Of a DNA stretch of 32,000 nucleotides, positions 5,489 through 28,265 are shown piece after piece (positions within the stretch are counted from its first letter, which is position 1; each line of letters starts with the position of its first letter). The stretch lies in contig NC_008312.1 in the NCBI RefSeq assembly GCF_000014265.1, positions 450,001 through 482,000 on the forward strand, in the 5' to 3' direction. The position numbers and the translations under genes are program-made. The notes beneath the pieces were generated by a model. The model was given only the letters and a program-made list of their open reading frames with translations, ran no database searches and was not told where the DNA came from. This DNA is from Trichodesmium erythraeum IMS101. Lineage in GTDB: Bacteria > Cyanobacteriota > Cyanobacteriia > Cyanobacteriales > Microcoleaceae.

Positions 5489-5689
5489 CCTAGGGACGTT
5501 GCAGACAACGGACTTAGGTAGAAATGAGAATTAATAGGAGGTAGTCGAATATATTTGTCCCTTGATTTTTGGGCAATTATTCGGCTCTTAATGCTAATAT
5601 CTATGAGCAAGAGTCACTGAAAAGCTGACACTTTTTTCGACCTAAAAAGCCTAAACCATTAGCAGAAAATTTCACAGGTCACACTAAAC

Positions 5690-6560
5690 CGGGGTGTCTG
5701 TGAAGTGTTTTTACACATTCTCTGATCATCACATCCCAAATTTTTAACGTACTATCCTCACTACTACTTACTAAAAATTGCCCACCTGAACTAAAAGCGA
5801 TCGCTCTCACATTATTTGTGTGCCCCTGTCAAGTTTGAAGAAATTCTCTAGTTCTAATGTCCCAAACTTTAAGAATGTGGTCATCACTACTCCTGGCAAG
5901 GTTTTGCCATCGGGGTTAAATGCTAACCTTTCAAACCAACTTTCATACCTTTCCCAAACAAGATAACTACTCGCATTCATATTCCAAATTTTAATATTTG
6001 CATCCTGACCTCCACTAGCTCAAATTTGACCGCAAGGACTAAAAGCTACCGTCCAAATTCCACCTTAATATTGTTGAGTAGGATATCGCCAAATTTGCCT
6101 ACGGCAAGATGCATTAACATCCCAAAGCATAATATTTTTATCATCACCACAACTAGCAATTTATTTACCACCCGGACTAAAAACCACTGCGAAAATTAAA
6201 CTAATATACCCCCTCAAATCTTGTATACACTCTCAAGTTTCCACATTCCATAACCTATTCCCTAAGCTAATAGCAGTGTCTAAATGACTGCTAGCAATTA
6301 GTTTCTAATTTAGACTAAGAGCAACAGAACAAACTGAATTAGTATAACCTGAAAAAGTTTTCAGGAATTTTCCCCCAAGAGTCTCCCATCATTTAATTAT
6401 CTGGTCATGATCATCTATTCACACAATTGTGTTATCGCGACGAAAAGCAATAGTTCGGATGGGAGCTTGATGTTCCTTTTCTGTTACTAAACATTCTCCA
6501 GTTTCCAAATTCCACAAGGGGAGAATGGCTTTGGTAGTCCTGTAGATATAGTGATACTTA
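5690..6560 (-). pseudogene. WD40-repeat protein gene relic with multiple stops and frameshifts
   Basis: No ORF of 60 aa or more lies in 5474-6753. Reverse-strand translation still gives serial WD40 units broken by stops and frame changes. Examples are LWNLETGECLVTEKEHQAPIRTIAF, DDHDQIIK*WETLGGKFLKTFSGYTNSVCSVA, LWNVET*ECIQDLRGY..AVVFSPGGK*IASCGDDKNIMLWDV, GGIWTVAFSPCGQI*ASGGQDANIKIWNM and SSSEDSTLKIWDV. Confidence 0.8.
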
Positions 6561-14020: not shown

Positions 14021-17000
14021 CTACTTCACAACCAACGTCGCCGTTGCCGATCGCCCAAATTCTTCGGGGGCATATTGTAACCGCGCTTCTGCTCCAGGCC
14101 ATATAAACGTTCCGGGAGTCACAGACCTAGCTAAATAGTGTAAGGTATATACCCCAGGCTTTAAACCCTCAGCGTAAGCTTCGATACGATCGCTATATAT
14201 CTGTTGATATTGTATTTGCCAACTATCAGCTTTTGCCTTCACAGCAGAAGTGGAAGTTTGAAAACTGGTATCAACTGCTTCTAAACCTGCTGGCAGTGGG
14301 TCCCTGATCACTACATGGTCTACAGGGTGGTCTACAATAATTTCGACTCCAATATCAAAGACTTGACCTGCAACAACATCTAATGTTGATGGAACCTCAG
14401 AGATATCCATCCGTTGCCATATTTCCTCTTCATTTGCCAGACTAATTTCACGTGCTACTCGCAGACCGTTATACTTTCCTGGCTGGTTTCCTGGGAGACG
14501 ATAACTATACTCAACTAAATAATGCAACTTCCCTTCCCCTGATTTTTCCAAGACTAGATCTGATTTACCTTTTGGCAACCCATCCATTGCCACATTCACA
14601 GATAGATTTTGATTTTCATAACCTTGAAAACGGGTAGTATCTAGCTGTTTACCAGATAAATTGGCGGTTGTGACAAAGTCTGGTGGGGTGGGTTGAGTAT
14701 TGCTATAAGTAACCAACGCCCTCAATGCTTCGGCATTATCATAAGTTGTACGCCAGGTGCCATCCCGCCGCAAGTTGAGCAAACTTTGTAATATTCGGTC
14801 TATTACTTCTGGTTTGGCGTCGCGGGTAATAAATAGTCGCAATGCTTGAGCTTGACTTGCGGTAGTTGAATTCATCCATCCCCAGGTAGGTGGTAAATTC
14901 AATGTGGCACTGCGCCCTGTTTCATAAACACTGTTCTGAATTTCCCTAAATATTTCTTCTGACTGCTGACGCCACTGGGGGAAACTAGATAAATAACGCC
15001 CTAGTCTAATTTGGTTGACTAGTGACAATTTTTCCCGTTGTTGATAAATATCTGACAGGAAATTCTTGCGGGTATAACCTAATTCTGACAATGCTATTAA
15101 GACATTTAACCGCACCTGATTTTTACAGGGTTGTTCGGTACAATAATCATATTTACCTGGGTTTGCTAATAGGTTGTTTAAGTAATTCCGTAGACCATTT
15201 AACATTGAGTCATTCACTAAATTTGGAAATGCTTTTTGGGCTTGAGCGATCGCCTCCCCGGCATAAGCAGTCAAATAAGGGTTAGAAATTTCCTGCCCTG
15301 GATAATAACCAAAACCGCCATCTGGCAGTTGTAACTTTTCTAATTTTTCTAATGTTATTTTTGCCTGTTCCTCTGGGTTAAAGTCTACAAATGCTTGCTC
15401 ATATTTTTTACCTAAAATTTGTAAATTAGAAGCGATCGCTAACTGACTAGCCACAGGTTCAAGAAATGGTAACTGGTCTTTTTTCAACACTGCTTTTGCC
15501 GGAGCAGTAATTTCTGGTATCAAGGTACTTGCCATAAATATTTCCAGACCTCCCACATCTGGCATCACATTCTCAGTAATATTCAGAGGAATTTGCACTT
15601 GAGACTCAGTTATACCAGACTCCACCACAGTTTCACTTGCTGCCAAAGACCGAACGGGTAAAGCAACTTCAAACCCATCAGTGTCAAGGTCATTCAAGCC
15701 AGTCCTAAACTGCACTTTTGCCTCGCCAGGTTGTTTTGCCTCCATGGGAAAGCGGTAAGCATTCGTGCCTGGGTCTGCTTTTATTTTTAGAGTTTCTGTA
15801 GTTTGGGAATTTTTAGTAAACAAAATATTCTGACTAACTTCCCCATTTATTTTTAGACTTCCTTTTTTGCCAGTATTATTCGTAACGGCTACACCACCCT
15901 CAAACTTGTCACCAATACGAGCAAACTGAGGCAACATAGCATTTGACATTAAAGGTTGAGTCGTAATAAAAGTCGCCTCTCCATTGCCAAAATGTAAATT
16001 CCCATCTGTGGCAACAGCCATTATACGCCAGGTTGTTAAATCATCTGGTATATTAAAACTTACCGTTGCTTTACCTTGATCATCCGTAAGAACAGACCCA
16101 TTATAATAAGCTAAAGACTGAAAATATTTCCGAATGCGAGTACTAACACCGCCAGATGATATCCCATCTCTAATATTCTCATTTGAACTTGATATGTAAC
16201 CTGTACTATTCGATCTTGCCATTGTCATTTTTCTTGCTTTGCAGTTATCATTGAAACGAGTAGATATTGCTTGCTGCGAGTAGCGGGTAGATATTGGTTG
16301 CTGCGCGTAGACAGTCTCAACCAAATTTGGTGGTCGATAACCACTCAGTTGTAACACCGCTTCATTCACTACCATCACTGTCAACTGACCTTTTATCGGT
16401 TGCCCTTGATTATTTTTCAGTGCCAACTCCACATTTTCCATTGCCCCTGGTTGTAACTCCAGACTTTGGGGTGTCACTTCCACCTTTAAGTATTTGTCCG
16501 TCAAATCAATTTTCAATGGAGTAAAACCAACTTTCATCAAATTTTCCACACACCCAGGTTCCACATCTGGCAGTGGTTGACCTTGCGGGACTAACACTGC
16601 CTCCACTGCAGCATTAGGTAACATATTTTCTGTAACTTGAAATTGAATTTCCGGTGCGCCACTTTTAACTTTGACAATTTTTTCATATAGAGGTTTATCA
16701 CGCACGACAGCAAAATATAATTCCCCTTCTGGATAGGGCGACTGAATTAAAGCAGTTGCAGTTTCCCCTACTTGGTAGGTGTCTTTATCGAATTTTATTT
16801 TTAGACGTTCTTCCTTCTGGCTTCCCCAATAAACTCGCCCTGCTCCCGTTGCCCAAACCTGAATATCAGTAGCAGTAATGTCATCCTCAGCATTGGCAAA
16901 GTTGGCACGAATGCGATAACTGCCTGGTTCTGGGGGTGTAAGGTTGACGGTCTTGGGTTTGTTGTTGCTTATAACTTTTTCGGTAGCAACAGTTTTGTAT

Positions 17001-19735
17001 TCTACTTGGGCGACAGCACTCTGGGTGACTGCACTGTATTCCATTTTTTGTAATTCCAGTAGAATATTTTCCCCAGAAAGTGCTTTTCCTTGAGAGTTAG
17101 TCACAATAATTTCTACTGGAAATTTTTTATTCGCATCAGCAACAAATTTACTTTTTAAACCTATTAACTTCTGACTTGTTAGAGCAGTAAATGTTTGAGT
17201 ATCTGCTACAGAAAGATTGGATATATCTGTTACTTCCAGATCTACTTGATAATTCATTGGATAAGGTAAATCTTTCCCAACTGTAAATATTTGATTATCG
17301 CCACCATTATTATCTAGTATTACATTTTTTGTCAGCACATTATTAGGAACATTTGGTATTTTTTCCGGCCAAAACCATTGACGACCAAAAGAAAATTCTT
17401 GCCAATTTTTTGGAGAAAATTCTGTTTTTGTACGAGTCAGATAATATTTAGCTTTTCCCCCTTGCAACGGGGAACCAAACAAATAATTACTTTCAGCTTT
17501 TACCCCAATTTTTTCACCAAGTAAAACAATTTGTTTATCAAGTTTCAAGTCAACTTGAAAATTAGGTGGTTGAAATTCAGCGACACGAAATAGTCCGTAA
17601 ATTTCTACACCATTTTCTCCTTTTGCTTTTACGGTGTAATAACCGAATAGCTGATTACTATCCAGAGGAATTTCGAGAGAAAAAGTACCAAATTTATTAG
17701 TTGTCTGAGTGCCTAAGTTTTTATTATTACCATCTGGATTTATCAGAGTAATTTGATAATCTGTATTTTTGGCTTGTTTCAAGTTGCCATTTTCCAAATA
17801 ATAAGCAGCTCCAGTCAACCAAACTTTTTCTCCTGGTTGATAAATTTTTCTATCTGAAAAAATAGTACCCCGCGATTTAGGTTTTCCACTATCCCAACCA
17901 TAATTAATGTCATAATCATAGTTTATACTATATTCTTTAGTTATAGTAAATGCCCAATCTTGATTTTCTTTAGCAATTACTAATAGTTCTGGTGGTTGAG
18001 AAAAAAGCTGACCGTTCATACATTTTTTTAAGTCTGTTTTAGTTAAATTTACCAGACCATTTTTATCAGTTTTTCCAGTAGCACAAGGAGTCGTTTGAGA
18101 TTGAGATTTAGAATTTAATTGCAATTGATAAATCTCCACATTTGCCACAACTGGAGAACCATCATCTAGATGATTTACTCTAATAATTCCCGACTCTGGA
18201 AACCACTGAGCAAATACTCTTAAATTTGTTAATTGTATTAATCCATAAAATTCTGGTTCTTGCCATTTTTCCTGACCGTTTTGTTCAGAAAAACTCGTCC
18301 GAGCTTGTACTCCATAAGCTAACATTCCGGTCTGACCACCCAATTTTTCTTGAAGGGGAATTGCTACTTCTGTTATTTTATTTTTTTCTCCAGAAACAGG
18401 ATATTTTTGCCACTTTTTATTTATCGGTAATAAGTTCTTCCGATTATTTATAGGATAGGCTGACTCTGTGTAAACTAAATCTGTTGGTTGTACAACTTTA
18501 TAGGTTGCTTTATATTCTGATTCTGGCAGATTTACTGTAGAAATTTTTAGTTGTAAATCTTGACTAGACGCGAAAATTTTTAACCCTGAAGGAACAGAAA
18601 TATCTCCTAATAAATCTCCTGTTTGATAATCTAAGACAACGGGCTTTCCTAGTATTTGCCCAAATTTATCTTTGGTATTAGAACCAATAGTAATTTTATA
18701 ATTTGTATCGGGTTCTAACAGCAAAGGATTAAGACGAACAATGTTATAGTTATTGTTAGCTTGAATCAGATTTTTAGTTTCTTTTGGTGCGGGCTCAATT
18801 GTAATATTTTTAACCGCTGAATCTTCTACAATTCCATGATTAAATTCTAATATAGGATTACCTTTAACAAATATACTCCTTCTCTCGGAAAATTTGAGTT
18901 GAGAAAATTCAAAATTAGAGTAGGTTTCTACTTCACTAATGAAAGGTGTTTGACTAGGTAAATTACCTTTCAATGTTTGAATACCTGAGTCAAATTCTAG
19001 CCGATATTTAGTACCTTTTTCTAGAGTTACTTGGGGAGTAATTAAATAATTCCATTGATGCCAAGAAGGGTCAAATTTTTCTCTGGGAGATTGTTCTTTT
19101 TCAGAATTTTCTAATTTTTCTAAACTAACTACAAAGGGTAAGCTTTCTGTCTTACCATCTGGCAAAAATTTTAATTTTTTTGTAATTGAATCTAAATCCA
19201 ATTCCACATTTGAGGTGAATTTTAAAGTTGGATTTATATTAATTGGTTCTTTTCTGCTACTCCTTGGTAAATTTGTTAGTTTGACTGGTTCAGTATTAAA
19301 AGTCCAGACTAAATCTTGATCTAATTGATGATTTTTTAAGTCAGATAAACCAGATTTTAGAGTAACTTTAAATCTGGTGGATTTTGGCAAGGCTTCTTCT
19401 GATTGAAAACCTACCATTTTCGGAGTCAAAAATCGGAATTGACCAGGTAATTCCGGGAAAATTTCAAACTGCTTTAATTTTTCCTGTTGTTCTAGAGAAC
19501 CTACAGTTTCCAAAGGAATTAAAGGTTCTTTAAACCGAATCAGAATTTGACTTAAAGATTTTGCTTCTCCCGTGGGAGTAATTTGTTCTATCCACTCGGG
19601 TAGTGGAGCAGTAATTATTAAGTCTACCATTGGTGATTTTTCCTGTTTTGAACTTAAGCTAAAGCTACTAAATATTCCTATGGTCAATACTAAGCATAAT
19701 CCTATGAGAAAATATTTCCAATATTTAAGAACCAT
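14021..19735 (-). CDS. Bacterial alpha-2-macroglobulin family protein, apparently thioester-less, with an N-terminal signal-anchor
   Basis: 1904-aa ORF with repeated Ig-like macroglobulin-domain character. It has the IPDDLTTWRIMAVA motif and an alpha/alpha-toroid TED-like region (LPDGGFGYYPG, RRDGTWRTTYDNAEALRAL). The N-terminus MVLKYWKYFLIGLCLVLTIGIFSSF is hydrophobic. The ORFs at 14452, 15022, 16294 and 18226 (+) are antisense noise. Confidence 0.9.
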   Translation of the reverse strand: MVLKYWKYFLIGLCLVLTIGIFSSFSLSSKQEKSPMVDLIITAPLPEWIEQITPTGEAKSLSQILIRFKEPLIPLETVGSLEQQEKLKQFEIFPELPGQFRFLTPKMVGFQSEEALPKSTRFKVTLKSGLSDLKNHQLDQDLVWTFNTEPVKLTNLPRSSRKEPININPTLKFTSNVELDLDSITKKLKFLPDGKTESLPFVVSLEKLENSEKEQSPREKFDPSWHQWNYLITPQVTLEKGTKYRLEFDSGIQTLKGNLPSQTPFISEVETYSNFEFSQLKFSERRSIFVKGNPILEFNHGIVEDSAVKNITIEPAPKETKNLIQANNNYNIVRLNPLLLEPDTNYKITIGSNTKDKFGQILGKPVVLDYQTGDLLGDISVPSGLKIFASSQDLQLKISTVNLPESEYKATYKVVQPTDLVYTESAYPINNRKNLLPINKKWQKYPVSGEKNKITEVAIPLQEKLGGQTGMLAYGVQARTSFSEQNGQEKWQEPEFYGLIQLTNLRVFAQWFPESGIIRVNHLDDGSPVVANVEIYQLQLNSKSQSQTTPCATGKTDKNGLVNLTKTDLKKCMNGQLFSQPPELLVIAKENQDWAFTITKEYSINYDYDINYGWDSGKPKSRGTIFSDRKIYQPGEKVWLTGAAYYLENGNLKQAKNTDYQITLINPDGNNKNLGTQTTNKFGTFSLEIPLDSNQLFGYYTVKAKGENGVEIYGLFRVAEFQPPNFQVDLKLDKQIVLLGEKIGVKAESNYLFGSPLQGGKAKYYLTRTKTEFSPKNWQEFSFGRQWFWPEKIPNVPNNVLTKNVILDNNGGDNQIFTVGKDLPYPMNYQVDLEVTDISNLSVADTQTFTALTSQKLIGLKSKFVADANKKFPVEIIVTNSQGKALSGENILLELQKMEYSAVTQSAVAQVEYKTVATEKVISNNKPKTVNLTPPEPGSYRIRANFANAEDDITATDIQVWATGAGRVYWGSQKEERLKIKFDKDTYQVGETATALIQSPYPEGELYFAVVRDKPLYEKIVKVKSGAPEIQFQVTENMLPNAAVEAVLVPQGQPLPDVEPGCVENLMKVGFTPLKIDLTDKYLKVEVTPQSLELQPGAMENVELALKNNQGQPIKGQLTVMVVNEAVLQLSGYRPPNLVETVYAQQPISTRYSQQAISTRFNDNCKARKMTMARSNSTGYISSSNENIRDGISSGGVSTRIRKYFQSLAYYNGSVLTDDQGKATVSFNIPDDLTTWRIMAVATDGNLHFGNGEATFITTQPLMSNAMLPQFARIGDKFEGGVAVTNNTGKKGSLKINGEVSQNILFTKNSQTTETLKIKADPGTNAYRFPMEAKQPGEAKVQFRTGLNDLDTDGFEVALPVRSLAASETVVESGITESQVQIPLNITENVMPDVGGLEIFMASTLIPEITAPAKAVLKKDQLPFLEPVASQLAIASNLQILGKKYEQAFVDFNPEEQAKITLEKLEKLQLPDGGFGYYPGQEISNPYLTAYAGEAIAQAQKAFPNLVNDSMLNGLRNYLNNLLANPGKYDYCTEQPCKNQVRLNVLIALSELGYTRKNFLSDIYQQREKLSLVNQIRLGRYLSSFPQWRQQSEEIFREIQNSVYETGRSATLNLPPTWGWMNSTTASQAQALRLFITRDAKPEVIDRILQSLLNLRRDGTWRTTYDNAEALRALVTYSNTQPTPPDFVTTANLSGKQLDTTRFQGYENQNLSVNVAMDGLPKGKSDLVLEKSGEGKLHYLVEYSYRLPGNQPGKYNGLRVAREISLANEEEIWQRMDISEVPSTLDVVAGQVFDIGVEIIVDHPVDHVVIRDPLPAGLEAVDTSFQTSTSAVKAKADSWQIQYQQIYSDRIEAYAEGLKPGVYTLHYLARSVTPGTFIWPGAEARLQYAPEEFGRSATATLVVK
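16257..16310. repeat. 27-bp (9-codon) tandem duplication inside the A2M gene
   Basis: cgagtagatattgcttgctgcgagtag (16257-16283) is followed by cgggtagatattggttgctgcgcgtag (16284-16310), with 24 of 27 positions identical. This encodes YAQQPISTR / YSQQAISTR on the - strand. Confidence 0.85.
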
Positions 19736-20524
19736 ATTTTTATGATTTAAGGATAATTTTTACTGACAATTATTAAAGGTCTAATGACTGAAAAGAATAG
19801 GCTATTTAATTTATTAATCTTAAACCATTATATCTCTAAGAGTTAAATACTCAAATAGTTGAATAGTTATTAAATCGTCAAGTCTAAACTATATAAATTT
19901 TAGCAGAAATAGCACAGATACTTTTTCGGAAATAGTCAGTCATTTTTTTTACTCCAGAACATAAGAGCGATCGCTTAATTGAATCATAACTGGAATTAAT
20001 TTTTTAGTCATAGGACATTAAATAAATTCCAGATTGTGGAAAATTTATAAAAAGTAAAACTCTAAACAAAAAAAACTAATAATTATGAAATATATAACAA
20101 TCATATTTTTATTTTTTCCAAAATTTTACCGCTTTTGGCGACAAGAACTTGGGTGTAATAGCTAAGAGCTTCAGAACAAATTACTTTAATTATTAAAGAA
20201 TAGCTTTTTCTCCGGTTATTTCTGTTTTTTGCCCTCTACTTCCTTCCTAACAGTCGCCAATTTTTTCACTTTTTAGATAGCATGACTATATTTAATAAAT
20301 TGATAAAAAATAAAAATTTATGGTTTAAATATCAAATGGTAAATAACTAGTTAATTTTTGTAGAGTAATAATTTATGATAATACCTAAAGCAAAATTTAA
20401 TATACTTTGCTCAAAAATGTTGATGTTAGAAAAGCGGCTCAGGATTTGAGCAACTTCTTTTGAGATATCTATTAATTTATATTTCTCATGAATGGAATAG
20501 TATCACTATTAAATAGTTTTAATT

Positions 20525-20850
20525 ATGGGTAAAGAGGCTGTAGTTTTTGGAATTAATTGTTATCCATTTTTGAAAAAATAAAAGTTAGGAGATTTTGATT
20601 TTAAAGCTCCTGTTAAAGATGCCGAAGGTATTACTAATATCTTGGAAAAATATGGTAAGTTTCGATTTCAACACTGGCCAAAGAAGGATGATGAGGAAGG
20701 TAAAAAAATATTTGGTTCTAAGGGCAAGGTTATAATTAATGACCTCTAATATTAGTAACTTCTTTGGAAAAAGATGAGATAGAGGAAGCAATTAAGAACC
20801 CAGCGGAATTAGTGGGAATGGCAGTAGAAGCTAAGTTAGTTACTCAAAAA
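20525..20850 (+). pseudogene. Relic of the 5' part of a caspase-like (peptidase C14-type) multidomain gene
   Basis: One frame reads MGKEAVVFGINCYPFLKK*KLGDFDFKAPVKDAEGITNILEKYGKFRFQHWPKKDDEEGKKIFGSKGKVIINDL*. The (A)VV(F)GIN.Y...L.aP..DAE.i...LekyG.F pattern matches, from memory, the N-termini of cyanobacterial caspase-domain proteins. There is an in-frame TAA and then a frameshift (..SNISNFFGK in another frame). The catalytic His/Cys part is absent. Confidence 0.5.
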
Positions 20851-21815
20851 ATTGACCTTGATACTAATACAAAAACCAGAGAAACAGACCCCCAACTTGT
20901 AGCCAACAAATTTGCTGCTCCTGCCAAAGTAAAAGAAGGTAAAAAATTAGCAAAATAGGGAAAAATAAAACAGACAATTTCTATCTTCAAAAAATCTCTA
21001 GAACTGGAACCAGAAATTGACCTTGATACTAATACAAAAACCAGAGAAACAGACCCCCAACTTGTAGCCAACAAATTTGCTGCTCCTGCCAAAGTAAAAG
21101 AAGGTAAAAAATTAGCAAAATAGGGAAAAATAAAACAGACAATTTCTATCTTCAAAAAATCTCTAGAACTGGAACCAGAAATTGACCTTGATACTAATAC
21201 AAAAACCAGAGAAACAGACCCCCAACTTGTAGCCAACAAATTTGCTGCTCCTGCCAAAGTAAAAGAAGGTAAAAAATTAGCAAAATAGGGAAAAATGGAA
21301 CCAGCAATTTCTATCTTCAAAAAATCTCTAGAACTAGAACCAGAAATTGACCTTGATACTAATACAAAAACCAGAGAAACAGACCCCCAACTTGTAGCCA
21401 AAAAATTTGCTGCTCCTGCCAAAGTAAAAGAAGGTAAAAAATTAGCAAAATAGGGAAAAATGGAACCAGCAATTTCTATCTTCAAAAAATCTCTAGAACT
21501 GGAACCAGAAATTGACCTTGATACTAATACAAAAACCAGAGAAACAGACCCCCAACTTGTAGCCAACAAATTTGCTGCTCCTGCCAAAGTAAAAGAAGGT
21601 AAAAAATTAGCAAAATAGGGAAAAATGGAACCAGCAATTTCTATCTTCAAAAAACCTCTAGAACTGGAACCAGAAATTGACCTTGATACTAATACAAAAA
21701 CCAGAGAAACAGACCCCCAACTTGTAGCCAAAAAATTTGCTGCTCCTGCCAAAGTAAAAGAAGGTAAAAAATTAGCAAAATAGGGAAAAATGGAACCAGC
21801 AATTTCTATCTTCAA
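20844..21815 (-). CDS. Repeat-encoded antisense ORF (hypothetical, probably not a real gene)
   Basis: 323-codon open frame made only of the 55-aa unit FLKIEIAGSIFPYFANFLPSFTLAGAANLLATSWGSVSLVFVLVSRSISGSSSRG. It has no ATG in frame (the ORF track start is TTG) and no upstream leader or SD. The composition mirrors the K/E-rich sense strand. Confidence 0.2.
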   Translation of the reverse strand: MKIEIAGSIFPYFANFLPSFTLAGAANFLATSWGSVSLVFVLVSRSISGSSSRGFLKIEIAGSIFPYFANFLPSFTLAGAANLLATSWGSVSLVFVLVSRSISGSSSRDFLKIEIAGSIFPYFANFLPSFTLAGAANFLATSWGSVSLVFVLVSRSISGSSSRDFLKIEIAGSIFPYFANFLPSFTLAGAANLLATSWGSVSLVFVLVSRSISGSSSRDFLKIEIVCFIFPYFANFLPSFTLAGAANLLATSWGSVSLVFVLVSRSISGSSSRDFLKIEIVCFIFPYFANFLPSFTLAGAANLLATSWGSVSLVFVLVSRSIF

Positions 21816-21881
21816 AAAAGCTCTAGAACTGGAACCAGAAATTGACCTCGTTCCTAATACAAAAACCAGAGAAACAGACCC

Positions 21882-24209
21882 TCAACTTGTAGCCAACAAA
21901 TTTGCTGCTCCTGCCAAAGTAAAAGAAGGTAAAAAATTAGCAAAATAGGGAAAAATGGAACCAGCAATTTCTATCTTCAAAAAACCTCTAGAACTGGAAC
22001 CAGAAATTGACCTTGATACTAATACAAAAACCAGAGAAACAGACCCCCAACTTGTAGCCAACAAATTTGCTGCTCCTGCCAAAGTAAAAGAAGGTAAAAA
22101 ATTAGCAAAATAGGGAAAAATGGAACCAGCAATTTCTATCTTCAAAAAATCTCTAGAACTGGAACCAGAAATTGACCTTGATACTAATACAAAAACCAGA
22201 GAAACAGACCCCCAACTTGTAGCCAACAAATTTGCTGCTCCTGCCAAAGTAAAAGAAGGTAAAAAATTAGCAAAATAGGGAAAAATGGAACCAGCAATTT
22301 CTATCTTCAAAAAACCTCTAGAACTGGAACCAGAAATTGACCTTGATACTAATACAAAAACCAGAGAAACAGACCCCCAACTTGTAGCCAACAAATTTGC
22401 TGCTCCTGCCAAAGTAAAAGAAGGTAAAAAATTAGCAAAATAGGGAAAAATGGAACCAGCAATTTCTATCTTCAAAAAATCTCTAGAACTGGAACCAGAA
22501 ATTGACCTTGATACTAATACAAAAACCAGAGAAACAGACCCCCAACTTGTAGCCAACAAATTTGCTGCTCCTGCCAAAGTAAAAGAAGGTAAAAAATTAG
22601 CAAAATAGGGAAAAATAAAACAGACAATTTCTATCTTCAAAAAATCTCTAGAACTGGAACCAGAAATTGACCTTGATACTAATACAAAAACCAGAGAAAC
22701 AGACCCCCAACTTGTAGCCAACAAATTTTCTGCTCCTGCCAAAGTAAAAGAAGGTAAAAAATTAGCAAAATAGGGAAAAATGGAACCAGCAATTTCTATC
22801 TTCAAAAAACCTCTAGAACTGGAACCAGAAATTGACCTCAATACTAATACAAAAACCAGAGAAATAGACCCCCAACTTGTAGCCAACAAATTTGCTGCTC
22901 CTGCCAAAGTAAAAGAAGGTAAAAAATTAGCAAAATAGGGAAAAATAAAACAGACAATTTCTATCTTCAAAAAATCTCTAGAACTGGAACCAGAAATTGA
23001 CCTTGATACTAATACAAAAACCAGAGAAACAGACCCCCAACTTGTAGCCAACAAATTTGCTGCTCCTGCCAAAGTAAAAGAAGGTAAAAAATTAGCAAAA
23101 TAGGGAAAAATGGAACAGACAATTTCTATCTTCAAAAAATCTCTAGAACTGGAACCAGAAATTGACCTTGATACTAATACAAAAACCAGAGAAACAGACC
23201 CCCAACTTGTAGCCAACAAATTTGCTGCTCCTGCCAAAGTAAAAGAAGGTAAAAAATTAGCAAAATAGGGAAAAATGGAACCAGCAATTTCTATCTTCAA
23301 AAAACCTCTAGAACTAGAACCAGAAATTGACCTCGATCCTAATACAAAAACCAGAGAAACAGACCCCCAACTTGTAGCCAACAAATTTGCTGCTCCTGCC
23401 AAAGTAAAAGAAGGTAAAAAATTAGCAAAATAGGGAAAAATGGAACAGACAATTTCTATCTTCAAAAAATCTCTAGAACTGGAACCAGAAATTGACCTTG
23501 ATACTAATACAAAAACCAGAGAAACAGACCCCCAACTTGTAGCCAACAAATTTGCTGCTCCTGCCAAAGTAAAAGAAGGTAAAAAATTAGCAAAATAGGG
23601 AAAAATGGAACCAGCAATTTCTATCTTCAAAAAAGCTCTAGAACTAGAACCAGAAATTGACCTTGATACTAATACAAAAACCAGAGAAACAGACCCCCAA
23701 CTTGTAGCCAACAAATTTGCTGCTCCTGCCAAAGTAAAAGAAGGTAAAAAATTAGCAAAATAGGGAAAAATGGAATCAGCAATTTCTATCTTCAAAAAAG
23801 CTCTATAACTAGAACCAGAAATTGACCTTGATACTAATACAAAAACCAGAGAAACAGACCCCCAACTTGTAGCCAACAAATTTGCTGCTCCTGCCAAAGT
23901 AAAAGAAGGTAAAAAATTAGCAAAATAGGGAAAAATGGAACCAGCAATTTCTATCTTCAAAAAAGCTCTATAACTGGAACCAGAAATTGACCTTGATACT
24001 AATACAAAAACCAGAGAAACAGACCCCCAACTTGTAGCCAACAAATTTGCTGCTCCTGCCAAAGTAAAAGAAGGTAAAAAATTAGCAAAATAGGGAAAAA
24101 TGGAACCAGCAATTTCTATCTTCAAAAAACCTCTAGAACTAGAACCAGAAATTGACCTTGATACTAATACAAAAACCAGAGAAACAGACCCCCAACTTGT
24201 AGCCAACAA
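21882..24209 (-). CDS. Repeat-encoded antisense ORF (hypothetical, probably not a real gene)
   Basis: 775-codon open frame across about 14 units with the same 55-aa unit as above. It contains no internal Met. It is bounded by stops created by single-unit substitutions (TGA at 21882-21884, TAA near 24210-24218). Confidence 0.2.
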   Translation of the reverse strand: MLATSWGSVSLVFVLVSRSISGSSSRGFLKIEIAGSIFPYFANFLPSFTLAGAANLLATSWGSVSLVFVLVSRSISGSSYRAFLKIEIAGSIFPYFANFLPSFTLAGAANLLATSWGSVSLVFVLVSRSISGSSYRAFLKIEIADSIFPYFANFLPSFTLAGAANLLATSWGSVSLVFVLVSRSISGSSSRAFLKIEIAGSIFPYFANFLPSFTLAGAANLLATSWGSVSLVFVLVSRSISGSSSRDFLKIEIVCSIFPYFANFLPSFTLAGAANLLATSWGSVSLVFVLGSRSISGSSSRGFLKIEIAGSIFPYFANFLPSFTLAGAANLLATSWGSVSLVFVLVSRSISGSSSRDFLKIEIVCSIFPYFANFLPSFTLAGAANLLATSWGSVSLVFVLVSRSISGSSSRDFLKIEIVCFIFPYFANFLPSFTLAGAANLLATSWGSISLVFVLVLRSISGSSSRGFLKIEIAGSIFPYFANFLPSFTLAGAENLLATSWGSVSLVFVLVSRSISGSSSRDFLKIEIVCFIFPYFANFLPSFTLAGAANLLATSWGSVSLVFVLVSRSISGSSSRDFLKIEIAGSIFPYFANFLPSFTLAGAANLLATSWGSVSLVFVLVSRSISGSSSRGFLKIEIAGSIFPYFANFLPSFTLAGAANLLATSWGSVSLVFVLVSRSISGSSSRDFLKIEIAGSIFPYFANFLPSFTLAGAANLLATSWGSVSLVFVLVSRSISGSSSRGFLKIEIAGSIFPYFANFLPSFTLAGAANLLATS

Positions 24210-24218
24210 ATTTGCTGC

Positions 24219-24785
24219 TTATGCCAAAGTAGAAGAAGGTAAAAAACTAGCAAAATAGGGAAAAATAAAACAGACAATTTCTATCTTCAAAAAATCTCTA
24301 GAACTAGAACCAGAAATTGGCCTCAATACTAATACAAAAACCAGAGAAACAGACCCCCAACTTGTAGCCAACAAATTTGCTGCTCCTGCCAAAATAAAAG
24401 AAGGTAAAAAATTAGCAAAATAGGGAAAAATAAAACAGACAATTTCTATCTTCAAAAAATCTCTAGAACTGGAACCAGAAATTGACCTTGATACTAATAC
24501 AAAAACCAGAGAAACAGACCCCCAACTTGTAGCCAACAAATTTGCTGCTCCTGCCAAAGTAAAAGAAGGTAAAAAATTAGCAAAATAGGGAAAAATGGAA
24601 CCAGCAATTTCTATCTTCAAAAAACCTCTAGAACTAGAACCAGAAATTGACCTCGTTCCTAATACAAAAACCAGAGAAACAGACCCCCAACTTGTAGCCA
24701 ACAAATTTGCTGCTCCTGCCAAAGTAAAAGAAGGTAAAAAATTAGCAAAATAGGGAAAAATGGAACCAGCAATTTCTATCTTCAA
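24219..24785 (-). CDS. Repeat-encoded antisense ORF (hypothetical, probably not a real gene)
   Basis: 188-codon open frame with the same unit, a TTG start only, and the same caveats. Confidence 0.15.
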   Translation of the reverse strand: MKIEIAGSIFPYFANFLPSFTLAGAANLLATSWGSVSLVFVLGTRSISGSSSRGFLKIEIAGSIFPYFANFLPSFTLAGAANLLATSWGSVSLVFVLVSRSISGSSSRDFLKIEIVCFIFPYFANFLPSFILAGAANLLATSWGSVSLVFVLVLRPISGSSSRDFLKIEIVCFIFPYFASFLPSSTLA

Positions 24786-24924
24786 AAAATCTCTAGAACT
24801 AGAACCAGAAATTGACCTTGATACTAATACAAAAACCAGAGAAACAGACCCTCAACTTGTAGCCAACAAATTTGCTGCTCCTGCCAAGGTAAAAGAAGGT
24901 AAAAAATTAGCAAAATAGGGAAAA

Positions 24925-25165
24925 ATGGAACCAGCAATGAATCTTTATAATCAAGCACAAAAATTAGATTCAGATGTCGAAATAGATACGAGTAATTTAG
25001 GATACTTATATTTTTTTTGCAGCTTAAATAATCAGGCTCAAGATATAATTTTTGCCTGTGAAAAAGCCGTTAAACTGGAGCCTAATAATAAAAAAAACTC
25101 AGTTTTATTGAGGTTTAGCAAGAGCATTAACAGGAGATTATTCGGGAGAAATTGAGGGTTTTTAA
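24925..25165 (+). pseudogene. Relic of the 3' part of the same gene (TPR-like C-terminal module), frameshifted and truncated
   Basis: The last array unit runs into MEPAMNLYNQAQKLDSDVEIDTSNLGYLYFFCSLNNQAQDIIFACEKAVKLEPNN. After an A8 run (about 25090-25097) the recognisable sequence continues in another frame as ARALTGDYSGEIEGF* (25118-25165). The pattern ...ACEKAV.LEP...RGLARALTGD..GAIEDF is, from memory, a recurrent C-terminal module of cyanobacterial caspase/TPR multidomain proteins. Confidence 0.5.
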
Positions 25166-25369
25166 GTATTAATATATTCTCTCAAATATTAGGTTTAAAA
25201 ATCCAGATTTTAGGTTAGGATATAAACTTTTACAAAAGGAGAAAAATCATTTAATTATGAGGTATTGAAGGAGTGGAAAAAAGAGGTAAATATACTAATA
25301 AATAGAAAGTCTTGAAAAGTCATATTAGGGAATCCCGTGCTGCCTCATAGGAGCAGCCTCGGGAGGATA

Positions 25370-26356
25370 TTAACCACCAATTTGTGACATAGTTCGACTA
25401 TAAATTCCAGTAGTGCCAGACTCTCTTTGCTTAAAATTAATTTCTGGTTTTAGACCTAATAAATATTCCACCTGCTGCCGTAACTCTTCCACAGAAATTC
25501 CATTACGCAAACTACTTTTTAAATCTATTTGACCGATTTCATTTAATAGACAAGGTCTTAACCATCCATCTGCAGAAAGACGCATTCTATTACAGCGATC
25601 GCAAAAGCATTCAGACATCTGACTAATAAACCCTAAAGTTCCTTTTGCTCCAGGAATTTGAAATATATCCGCCGGTCCATTTCCCGGGACAAAAGACTCT
25701 GTTAGCCCCCATTTTTTCCTAATTATTTGCCTTAATTCTTCAGAAGAAATCCAACCCTTATTATCAAACAATTTATCATTACCTATAGGCATAAATTCAA
25801 TAAATCGAATATGCCAATTACGGTTAATAGTTAAAGCAGCTAAATCTAAAACTTCATGATCATTAACCCCAGGAATAATAACTACATTAATCTTTAAAGG
25901 ATCAAAACCAACCTCATAAGCCGCTTGAATACCATTCCAAACTAGCTGCCAATGACTACGATTTTTATTTCCAATAATTAAATTAAAAGTATCTGAATCA
26001 AGAGTATCTAAACTAATATTAATTCTTCTTAAACCAGCTTTATATAAATCTTTTGCCATCTTTGATAGTAAAAAACCATTAGTAGTCATAGATAAATCTT
26101 TTGTTTCAGGAAAAGAAGCGATCGCCTCAATCAAACCTATAACATTAGGACGTAATAAAGGCTCGCCTCCAGTCAAGCGAAACCGAGTAAAACCTACAGG
26201 AATAAACACCTCTTTAAGCAGACTTAATAACTCATTATCAGTTAACAAATCTTGTTTTAAGATATAATCTATTTCTGCACCTTCTGGCATACAATATTGA
26301 CACCGAAAATTGCAACGATCTATCAGACTAATTCTTAGATAATCAACTGTGTTCAT
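25370..26356 (-). CDS. moaA: GTP 3',8-cyclase (molybdenum cofactor biosynthesis protein A, radical SAM)
   Basis: 328 aa. It has the N-terminal CNFRCQYC (CxxxCxxC) cluster in the [20 protein letters not shown] context. The second cluster is CDRC-x13-C ([20 protein letters not shown]). The protein ends in the C-terminal Gly-Gly typical of MoaA. Confidence 0.92.
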
Positions 26357-26658
26357 GTTAAAAATATTCTGTTAATATAATTTTAATTGTACTTTACCTG
26401 CTAGATATTTGCTAGTTATAGCCACTTTTTTGAAACTTTAATTTATCTCAATATTACTAATTTTAGAAAAAATATTCATAAAAGTATTGCTAATAGAGAA
26501 AGGTGTCAGTCTAGAAAGTCTAAAAAATAGACAATTGCATTACTTTTTTGGACATAATATGAAGTATATTCTCAACAAAAATAGATATAAAATTACAAAT
26601 AAAATAACAAATAAATGATATAATAGTAATTTTAAATAAACTTCACATACGTCCAATA

Positions 26659-27140
26659 GTGAGAGGAAAAACTAAAAAAAACACAGAATTTGGAGCAAAA
26701 CCTTGTGCAAGTTGTATAGAGCAATATGTATTTTTACATCGAATAAGTTGGGATAACTATAAAAAATCAGGAGATTTAAAAGTAACTGCAAAACGACACA
26801 GGCCGTCACCCAGAGTCGGCTGGTGCAGAGCAAGTTTACAGATCAGCAAGAAAATCTAAAATTCTGTCAAAAGAAAAGTATTTTATAGGAGCATTATTTC
26901 CCTGTGTTGACCACCCAAAAATATTGATCAAATAGAAATATTCTAGGTCAGGAGCGATCAAAAATTGCCTAACTATATTGAGGGTAAATTTTGGCCACTA
27001 CAAAAGAAGATTTAATCTAGGACAAGTGATGGCCAAACTTTCTGAAACTTCCACAACTTGGATAGAATAACCTTTAGCAGCGCGATCGCAATTACTTTTT
27101 TTAGTAATAACCTTTCTACCCTCTTAAAAGCAGCTTTTTC
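26659..27140 (+). pseudogene. C-terminal fragment of an IS4/IS5-superfamily DDE transposase, with frameshifts and stops
   Basis: Frame-hopping translation gives RGKTKKNTEFGAK...FLHRISWDNYKKSGDL, then ...PPKNIDQIEI...RSDQK..NYIEGKFWPLQKKI*S..., then ..GQVMAKLSETS...AITFFSNNLSTLLKAA. This matches the usual ...RGK..vEFGAK...lsWd.ynEs.dL...GRPPK...RN.IEGkFGq.KRrf.L.rvmAKL.eTS...I.i.flvmNL... C-terminal pattern. The N-terminal two thirds are missing and no inverted repeats were identified. Confidence 0.65.
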
Positions 27141-28265
27141 TCTTTTTTTGTACTTTTTTTTTTCAGTCTGTTTAACTATTTTTCCTTATAACTAAATGAA
27201 TATATAATAATAAAAAATTATCACTCTCTTTGAATAAGAAATCAACGATTTTCAGATTTATTCAGTCATCATAAATTAAGTCCATAATTTTTGTGAAAGA
27301 ACTCAAATGATATAGAGCTTAGGTAATTTTTTTTGTGTAGATCATCAAATTATCGTTCCTTTACTTGGGTTAGGTTGACCCCTCCAAATACTCTTCTCGT
27401 CCTTTCTGGGTGTCCCAGTTGCCCTTCTGTTTTTCCATAGCTGTAGTCCAGTTCCTTCTTAAGTGGGGCTTTTTCTCAGGGCTGGCCCAGGCCACTAGAG
27501 GTTAGCAATAATGAGATTTGAGGATTTTTATTCAGTTTTTCTATTACTTGTTACTATTGTCCAACGAGTTCAACTAGAGCATTCACCGACAGTAATTCTT
27601 AGTCTTTTCTCTCTTTTGGAATATCTGGTGGAATTCATTTCTCTACAATACTCAAGAGCTTTCCCTTTTTATTAGCTCCCTACCCTTCAATGCTTACCCC
27701 CTGGAGTATCTAAAAAATTCTTTGCCTTCCTATGATTAGCCAACTTTAAACCTAATTTTTTCTGTAATCAAGATTTACTAAAGTATGCCCCATATTTTTC
27801 TAATAGTAAACTCAGAAATTTAGCCGACTGGTTACCGACAAACCACTACAAAAAATAGAATAGTAGCTAGCCTAATTTGGGATTAATAATTGACAAAAAA
27901 TTAATCAAAATATATTAATATAATAAAAATTGTAAAGAAAATTCAAAAAAAGCAATGATCAAAACACATTAGTTGTTCATATAGCCTATCCCTGTCCAGG
28001 GATGAATTTGTCTAAAGCTTCCCAACTATTTGGGAGAGAACTAACAAAACCTGGCTAGCTAGATAGCTAAGTTGATCATAAAAAAAAGATAATATATATT
28101 ACGATATTTTAAGAGGTACCAGGATTTGAATACCAAATTAAAAGTATTAGTTTCTCAAAATACAGTTTTAATATCCATTGCACTCTTAGTCTGGAGTACA
28201 TAATCTTACTAGGAGCAACAGAAGCATTTTCCTATTTACTAAATAATTGGGAAATAGCCTTAACA

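Follow-up and report, generated by a model that had tools for sequence, protein, structure and literature searches.

A 165-bp tandem array in Trichodesmium erythraeum IMS101 probably derived from one TPR module of a decayed caspase–nSTAND1–WD40–TPR gene

We analyzed a 32,000-nt genomic stretch from Trichodesmium erythraeum IMS101 (the window, to which all positions below refer) that contains a single large tandem array of a 165-bp unit with an in-frame TAG codon at every junction. The array is very probably an inert, pseudogene-derived repetition of one 55-codon module, whose counterparts in related proteins form the TPR tails of caspase–nSTAND1–WD40 proteins. The 52-codon open reading frames (ORFs) on its + strand and the long ORFs on its - strand are most likely by-products rather than genes. 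This reading would account for an unusual 4-kb region in the reference genome of a nitrogen fixer of ecological importance, and it makes Tery_0305, Tery_0306, and a 52-amino-acid (aa) RefSeq product probable misannotations from a pseudogene-derived repeat. Exact look-ups showed that the proteins of the window are those of T. erythraeum IMS101, in which the array is flanked by the alpha-2-macroglobulin gene (Tery_0304) and by moaA; the 1904-aa ORF of the window corresponds to the alpha-2-macroglobulin protein adjoining Tery_0305.

Anatomy of the tandem array

Tandem Repeats Finder (TRF) placed the array at 20849-24938, with a period of 165, 24.8 copies, 97% matches, and 0 indels, which amounts to ~25 copies over ~4.1 kb. 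A string count of TAGGGAAAAAT returned exactly 25 occurrences, at 20956 + 165k up to 24916, and TAG is present at all 25 junctions. The next base after this string is G, giving ATG, at 19 junctions and A, giving ATA, at the other six (20956, 21121, 22606, 22936, 24256, and 24421). The stop-to-start spacing is therefore fixed at 19 of 25 junctions, where TAG is followed by 6 nt and then ATG. Sixteen intact 52-codon ORFs were found in the ORF list, the first of them at 21295-21453, and two ATG-initiated ORFs are cut by GAA>TAA changes at 23806 and 23971. These counts, together with the 76-aa ORF that follows the array, agree in every detail with the original prediction, which had been made from the nucleotide sequence of the window.

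Unit-by-unit comparison gave a unit translation that consists of the stop, GKMEPAISIFKK, one variable residue (S, P, or A), and LELEPEIDLDTNTKTRETDPQLVANKFAAPAKVKEGKKLAK. Among the 24 full units, the variable residue is S in 13, P in 7, and A in 4, and the units represent 17 haplotypes with some two-unit periodicity. Unique sequence takes over 23 nt past the last TAG. In RefSeq, the reference annotation includes a single 52-aa product from the + strand (WP_155994221.1), an ORF that was also called in several metagenome-assembled genomes (MAGs). The features of the + strand are as follows, in order of position.

20525..20749, + strand: remnant of a caspase (Peptidase_C14) N-terminus, reading MGKEAVVFGINCYPFLKK, stop, KLGDFDFKAPVKDAEGITNILEKYGKFRFQHWPKKDDEEGKKIFGSKGKVIINDL, stop; 60% identity to residues 1-74 of the relative L012:3345-8171
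20764..20848, + strand: 28-codon remnant of an nSTAND1 NTPase, LEKDEIEEAIKNPAELVGMAVEAKLVTQ; 26/28 residues equal to residues 455-482 of the L012 homologue
20849..20955, + strand: partial first repeat unit (unit positions 59-165), from IDLDTNTK; the TRF array start, equal to the consensus from position 59
20956..24915, + strand: 24 full 165-bp units, each opening TAG GGA AAA AT(G/A); string count, unit comparison, and ORF list
24916..24938, + strand: 25th junction and right repeat end, TAG GGA AAA ATG GAA CCA GCA AT; TRF, unit comparison, and alignment with contigs L002 and L018
24925..25155, + strand: 76-aa ORF, the unique rest of the TPR tail (MEPAMNLYNQAQKLDSDVEIDTSNLGYLYFFCSLNNQAQDIIFACEKAVKLEPNN...); ORF list and family alignment
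25112..25202, + strand: decayed tail in the +1 frame with nonsense codons, GLARALTGDYSGEIEGF, stop, VLIYSLKY, stop; translation, with L002 identical over the stretch

Parent gene and non-repeated allele

A protein search with one read-through unit plus the unique tail as the query recovered 22 relatives, and the named ones are all from Trichodesmium. All detectable homology of the unit lies on the + strand, in the TPR tails of caspase–nSTAND1–WD40 proteins, in agreement with the earlier proposal that + is the protein-like strand. The full-length relative L012:3345-8171 encodes 1608 aa and combines an N-terminus that matches Peptidase_C14 (caspase), an nSTAND1 NTPase match at residues 264-665, ~16 WD40 repeats, and a TPR-type tail. 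This family has many copies in Trichodesmium. A scan of the genome collection with the family alignment detected only four paralogous loci, in the Trichodesmium MAGs R02-R04, and the IMS101 locus itself was not among the matches.

The assignment of the unit to TPR-type repeats was assessed with a read-through polymer, in which TAG was replaced by E and which was scored against the Pfam gathering cut-offs. The polymer passes TPR_1 (PF00515; 45.3 bits, cut-off 27.8), TPR_2 (PF07719; 40.3 bits, cut-off 27), and TPR_8 (PF13181; 40.7 bits, cut-off 25.7). Its best TPR stretch spans residues 47-74 and includes the TAG position at residue 55, so that the TPR-like motif noticed in the original prediction is recognized by all three families across the stop. 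The AlphaFold2 model of P0001, a natural two-unit paralogue, has a predicted local distance difference test (pLDDT) score of 88.8 and shows a helix at residues 18-39, an EGK turn at 40-42, a helix at 43-56, and a loop at 57-72; the E of the E-G-K turn occupies the TAG position. The top Protein Data Bank matches of the model are all TPR proteins (P58IPK, a consensus TPR, Hip, OGT, and MamA), with modest scores (E ~1e-3, template modelling score 0.3-0.45). The 55-residue module is accordingly modelled as a TPR-type helical hairpin, made of a long helix, the E-G-K turn, and a short helix, followed by a 16-residue loop. Two in-frame units with sense codons occur naturally in L009 and in P0001, and because such two-unit proteins exist, the module qualifies as a true protein repeat that can expand.

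Upstream of the array, the IMS101 locus retains only ~100 of the ~1550 codons that precede the module in the family. The caspase remnant contains an in-frame TAA at 20579-20581 and terminates with TAA at 20747-20749. The nSTAND1 remnant lies in a different frame (the change falls between 20749 and 20764) and is fused directly to unit position 59. Missing are ~380 codons before the nSTAND1 remnant and ~1090 codons after it, the latter including all WD40 repeats. A third colinear segment matches the L012 homologue from residue 1570 onward (1570-1602), in the same order as the other two. On the opposite side of the array, the 76-aa ORF ends early through a frameshift in an A-run at ~25090, where the paralogues in the family alignment go on ...IRNYRGLARALTGNYQGAIEDFQVLV... 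Based on the colinear homology, the disabling lesions, and the relaxed selection described below, the gene in the window is a dead pseudogene of a caspase–nSTAND1–WD40–TPR gene, and it is only as a pseudogene that the locus belongs to this family. The two large deletions, the in-frame TAA, and the frameshift support the explanation that the original prediction had favored, namely a single origin of the amber mutation in a dead gene and its amplification together with the unit.

For a comparison of alleles, contigs were fetched by their identical MoaA protein. One of them, L002 (ENA ERZ27252522, k141_553588, a 123-kb contig), encodes an identical MoaA, and 7.2 kb of its flanking sequence match the window with 99.3% identity. 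The array is absent from L002; its WD40 repeats run directly into a single unit, which is followed by the same locus-specific tail (...KNLAKTGEKTNIKQAISIFKKALELEPEIDLDPDTETRETDPQLVANKFIALGKIEKGKQLAEEGKIKEAINLYNEAQKLDSDVEIDTSNLGYLYFFCSL...). This single unit (...KIKQAISIFKKALELEPEIDLDPDTETRETDPQLVANKFIALGKIEKGKQLAEEGKIKEAINLY...) carries GAA where the array has TAG, and ATA in place of the ATG. The original prediction had named two results that would together support an inert pseudogene, and L002 supplies one of them, a relative in which the gene is unrepeated and the TAG position holds a sense codon; the other concerned transcription and ribosome occupancy of the + strand. The L002 motifs IKQAISIF and IKEAINLY are spaced by exactly 55 codons, equal to the 165-bp period of the array, and the right repeat edge falls at GCAAT, where both motifs coincide. 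With this flank identity, the non-repeated and the 25-copy alleles represent a clean before-and-after pair that would show the repeat-rich, 40% non-coding Trichodesmium genome in the act of gaining non-coding DNA.

Both 25080-25202 of the window and 11190-11290 of L002 carry a frameshift in an A8 run and two nonsense codons relative to the paralogues (...Y, stop, GLARALTGDYSGEIEGF, stop, VL...). Since the 3'-end lesions are identical in the array and the non-repeated alleles, the 3' end was decayed before the array formed, and the parent gene may by then have been failing already. Most of the fetched contigs break at the array or collapse it, and in L001 (T. erythraeum GBRTRLIN201) a stretch of N interrupts it; with short-read assemblies behaving in this way, copy-number comparison between strains is limited. 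A look-up of alpha-2-macroglobulin contigs for the 5' half of the non-repeated allele returned only array-type contigs or ones that end beside the gene. When metagenomes were scanned for the junction, allowing any base at the first position of the stop codon, the matches were the L021 paralogue (with GAG) and a chance match in L020, and no further arrays were found.

The family alignment further clarifies how the junction came about. In the column of the TAG codon, most sequences have E, and the remaining ones have Q, G, or D. At the codon level, relatives have GAA (L002), GAG (L018 and, twice, L009), and CAG (L010 and L011), as foreseen by the original prediction, which had expected a codon for Q, E, K, or Y at this site. 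In L009, L010, and L011, the GAG or CAG codon is in all cases followed by GGA AAA ATA. The repeated unit is only ~85% identical to the L002 copy and is closer to L018, a paralogue located beside glyQ in T. erythraeum GBRTRLIN201. L018 reads GCCAAAGTAAAAGAAGGTAAAAAATTAGCAAAA GAG GGAAAAATA GAA CAA ACA ATT AATCTTTATAATCAAGCACAAAAATTAGATTCAGATGTCGAAATAGAT and thus corresponds to the 3' part of the window unit plus the right flank, identical save for GAG versus TAG and the next few codons. Because relatives read GAG or CAG followed by GGA AAA ATA, the TAG codon is one G>T (or C>T) step away from the family state, and the ATG is a derived ATA>ATG change. The TAGGGA that resembles a Shine-Dalgarno element is simply the ancestral E/Q-G codons. 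The derived state of the ATG, and an open and annotated minus strand, are two points that go beyond the original prediction.

The codons that follow the stop form a stepwise series. The paralogue has ATA GAA CAA ACA, six units have ATA AAA CAG ACA, and two units have ATG GAA CAG ACA; in the Tara contig L022, the right junction reads ATG GAA CAA GCA, and most units have ATG GAA CCA GCA. We also considered a one-step micro-conversion of the MEPA variant (ATGGAACCAGCAATT) from CTGGAACCAGAAATT, 36 nt downstream, which is unneeded since intermediates exist (MEQT in two units and MEQA in L022).

Lesions were also observed in paralogous tails elsewhere, in Trichodesmium MAGs and metagenome contigs: L010 has a stop at ~1300-1400, within ALELEP-stop-IDLY, and L021 has an apparent frameshift at ~1040-1060. 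Decay of the caspase–nSTAND1–WD40–TPR gene family thus seems common. Within the window, two short minus-strand ORFs at 5679-5980 contain WD40-like sequence (...IAFSSGGQFLVSSSEDSTLKIWD... and ...LAFNPDGKTL...). They are located in a 1.3-kb gap between a Peptidase_M1 gene and a CDP-alcohol phosphatidyltransferase gene, one of them has a WD40 Pfam match in L013, and the region is probably a further decayed WD40 gene remnant.

Substitutions between units and the proposed amplification

We identified 25 substitution events among the 24 full units; 17 are transitions and 8 are transversions, and all four bases were affected. In the sense frame, six are synonymous, 18 non-synonymous, and one nonsense, against 22% synonymous expected, and no other frame fits better. 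In every frame, the differences between units are compatible with neutral change. The sense-frame substitutions fit omega = 1, whereas omega <= 0.3 is rejected (P ~0.01). As evidence for a dead gene, the disabling lesions outweigh this substitution ratio. Family-ancestral states are kept in some units, including GCT (A) at the S/P/A site and CTC and CCT in the LDP codons, and the derived states have partly spread; further amino-acid variants are present in units from other MAGs. The pattern of unit variation is what incomplete concerted evolution would be expected to produce.

The S/P/A site corresponds to unit position 40 (e.g., 20995, 21655, and 21820), which follows directly after an A6 run and is three-allelic (TCT in 13 units, CCT in 7, and GCT in 4), with GCT as the family-ancestral state. 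The position may be a hotspot of mutation, or its variants may each have spread through part of the array. Mutagenesis by a diversity-generating retroelement was ruled out, as the substitutions are not adenine-specific, and a role of the units as silent donor cassettes for gene conversion into paralogues is unlikely, because each cassette has a stop.

We propose that, in a founder unit from the 3' end of the dead gene, the codon for the residue that opens the inter-helix turn first changed from GAG to TAG. An illegitimate exchange between the two similar motifs 55 codons apart, in keeping with the right repeat edge at GCAAT, would have come next, followed by homologous unequal exchange; by such unequal recombination, or by replication slippage, the founder unit may have been expanded to ~25 copies, with every junction inheriting the TAG. 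A TAG common to all junctions is then no statistical surprise, because a single founder unit was amplified. Continuing unequal exchange and gene conversion would keep the similarity of the copies at ~97% as new variants spread among them by drift, and the ATA>ATG change, now in 19 junctions, would be one such drifting variant.

Several observations weigh against an inert array of this origin. The synonymous/non-synonymous test is low in power, and the paralogues themselves show ratios of non-synonymous to synonymous rates (dN/dS) of 0.4-1.05 on the segment (45 codons). The derived ATG has reached 19 of 25 junctions, which drift explains and does not prove. The array with TAG and ATG was found in several natural populations, and the non-repeated allele in one contig only. 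L002 ends inside the WD40 repeats, so that its 5' part is unseen, and it shares the decayed 3' end. Since L002 is a metagenome contig, a chimeric join is possible, yet the locus-specific tail TSNLGYLYFFCSL directly adjoins the unrepeated unit. Finally, T. erythraeum transcribes much non-coding DNA, and its most abundant RNA is a tandem array that derives in part from the 3' end of a gene (PMC4143802).

Alternative explanations, known systems, and further observations

The regular series of + strand ORFs could be taken as a polycistron of 16-19 near-identical 52-codon genes, translated by re-initiation or coupling into helix-loop-helix peptides. Consistent with such a polycistron are the 16 intact ORFs, their fixed stop-to-start spacing with a weak AGGGA element situated 4 nt ahead of the ATG, the spread of a derived ATG to most units, and the ORF calls by NCBI and in several MAGs; a precedent is offered by mycobacterial interspersed repetitive units (MIRU), which, as far as they are summarised in PMC3184786, contain ORFs that overlap their neighbours in a polycistron. 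However, no purifying selection on the peptide is seen, with 18 non-synonymous and one nonsense change among 25 and a three-allele S/P/A site; six units are without ATG, two of the ATG-initiated ORFs are cut by TAA, and the TAG GGA AAA AT context represents ancestral E/Q-G-K-I codons. In addition, the peptide would begin at the hairpin turn of the TPR, joining helix B to helix A of the next repeat, and no promoter-like site was found in or just ahead of the units. We regard functional small ORFs of this kind as very unlikely. A slightly lower chance still is given to the specific scenario in which a dead TPR module gained a stop and then a start 6 nt downstream and was amplified to ~16-19 coupled 52-codon genes; if it were true, a single helix-loop-helix micropeptide would be produced abundantly in T. 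erythraeum by a gene array that emerged de novo from a pseudogene. Candidate array-specific tryptic peptides of such a product are SLELEPEIDLDTNTK, PLELEPEIDLDTNTK, and ETDPQLVANK, where the paralogues instead have ...DPDTETR....

A function of the array as RNA or DNA, whether as an abundant repeat RNA from either strand or as a structural or recombination element, is likewise very unlikely, though it is in keeping with the Tery_0080 array of the same strain, which exceeds 6 kb and accounts for 44.7% of primary reads (PMC4143802), and with the maintenance of the 165-bp array in several populations. The moaA gene (25370-26356, - strand) also points into the array, and as no terminator-like site was found between them, antisense read-through RNA is plausible. 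In contrast, the scan for promoters and terminators at 19700-25400 detected no sigma-70-like promoter or intrinsic terminator in the array, with counts at or below the shuffle expectation, and the Rfam scan of the window gave no family match at gathering thresholds. Two units fold no better than shuffled sequences on either strand (z = +1.42 for the + strand and +0.49 for the - strand), the variation between units looks unconstrained, and the very close relative L002 is without the array. The locus would matter more only if the mini-ORFs or a repeat RNA were expressed.

Programmed or leaky read-through of TAG into a long TPR polymer, the third option of the original prediction, has a practically negligible probability, even though the units form an uninterrupted TPR-type repeat above the Pfam thresholds and two-unit paralogues occur in nature. 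TAG is the ordinary stop of the Band_7 gene (1430-2728) and of the alpha-2-macroglobulin gene (14021-19735, - strand), and a tRNA scan of the window detected none; because TAG stops these two well-supported genes and no tRNA is encoded here, reassignment is excluded locally. Moreover, read-through would have to happen 25 times in a row, the frame is further broken by two TAA codons, and only scraps in different frames, with no intact start or gene body, are present upstream.

The opposite strand of the array is open over three long, annotated frames.

20844-21815, - strand: Tery_0305, hypothetical protein, 323 aa; GenBank and RefSeq annotation
21882-24209, - strand: Tery_0306, hypothetical protein, 775 aa; GenBank and RefSeq annotation
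24219-24785, - strand: WP_155994220.1, hypothetical protein, 188 aa; reference annotation

This openness for 323, 775, and 188 codons, together with the annotation of hypothetical proteins in GenBank and RefSeq, could suggest that Tery_0305 and Tery_0306 are real repeat proteins and that the + strand reading is the artefact, a view that we consider barely credible. Every homologue of the unit is a TPR tail, read from the + strand, that belongs to a real multidomain protein, and the antisense frame remains open in 42% of codon-order shuffles of the unit. The substitutions look neutral in this frame as well (5 synonymous, 18 non-synonymous, and 2 nonsense), and the two nonsense events already split it. 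All three ORFs have TTG starts, and in the Pfam matches of the minus-strand ORFs no stretch passes alone. Tery_0305, Tery_0306, and the 188-aa ORF are therefore judged to be antisense annotation artefacts of a stop-poor frame. The sequence FANFLPSFTLAGAANLLATSWGSVSLVFVLVSR is usable as a peptide signature of the antisense product; a literature search found no paper naming Tery_0305, Tery_0306, or Tery_0307.

As an inert pseudogene-derived repeat, the array can be compared with known systems, and it would behave as a bacterial minisatellite born inside a repeat-containing gene. Like bacterial minisatellites, or variable-number tandem repeats, it is arranged head-to-tail without indels, its period is a multiple of three, its copies have the high identity expected of concerted evolution, a founder mutation is present in every copy, and its period matches the distance between two similar motifs that the intact gene already contained. 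It differs from them in its unusual length (~4.1 kb and ~25 copies) and in its location in a gene remnant rather than in a working surface-protein gene. The array would be one more instance of how rich the Trichodesmium genome is in repeats and pseudogenes (PMC4143802; PMC9950141). The Tery_0080 array of the same genome (Pfreundt et al. 2014, PMC4143802) comprises 7 copies of 736-973 bp units that are >96% identical and include a duplicated 3' part of a neighbouring gene; the units possess a transcription start of their own, and northern blotting verified a ~260-nt RNA. Both arrays are tandem, have high identity between copies, and include a 3' gene part, whereas the unit described here is 165 bp long, wholly coding-derived, and without a promoter-like site.

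The Trichodesmium caspase (orthocaspase)–nSTAND1–WD40–TPR proteins are homologous to the unit and to both of its flanks, and their members carry one or two in-frame modules; the IMS101 locus, in contrast, has stops and ~25 module copies, each with TAG. The MIRU of mycobacteria (Supply et al. 1997, in the summary given by PMC3184786) are described there as 40-100 bp elements at ~40-50 dispersed loci between working genes, with which they are co-transcribed. Their tandem units with small ORFs that abut or overlap their neighbours are, on that description, the nearest analogue of a small-ORF polycistron, whereas the array analyzed here is a single, pseudogene-derived locus with no constraint seen on the ORF.

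Several minor observations were made elsewhere in the window. The alpha-2-macroglobulin gene (14021-19735, - strand) is annotated with 1869 aa in IMS101 and with 1904 aa, from an upstream ATG, in MAGs, and the 1904-aa ORF is open in the window. An imperfect tandem repeat with a period of 29, 2.1 copies, and 76% matches is located at 1061-1123, upstream of the Band_7 gene. Between moaA and a TauE-family gene, ~1.9 kb (26357-28265) contain no ORF of >66 codons and include a 12-bp tandem repeat at 26587-26615. The TauE gene itself was called with either 287 or 335 residues, depending on the assembly.

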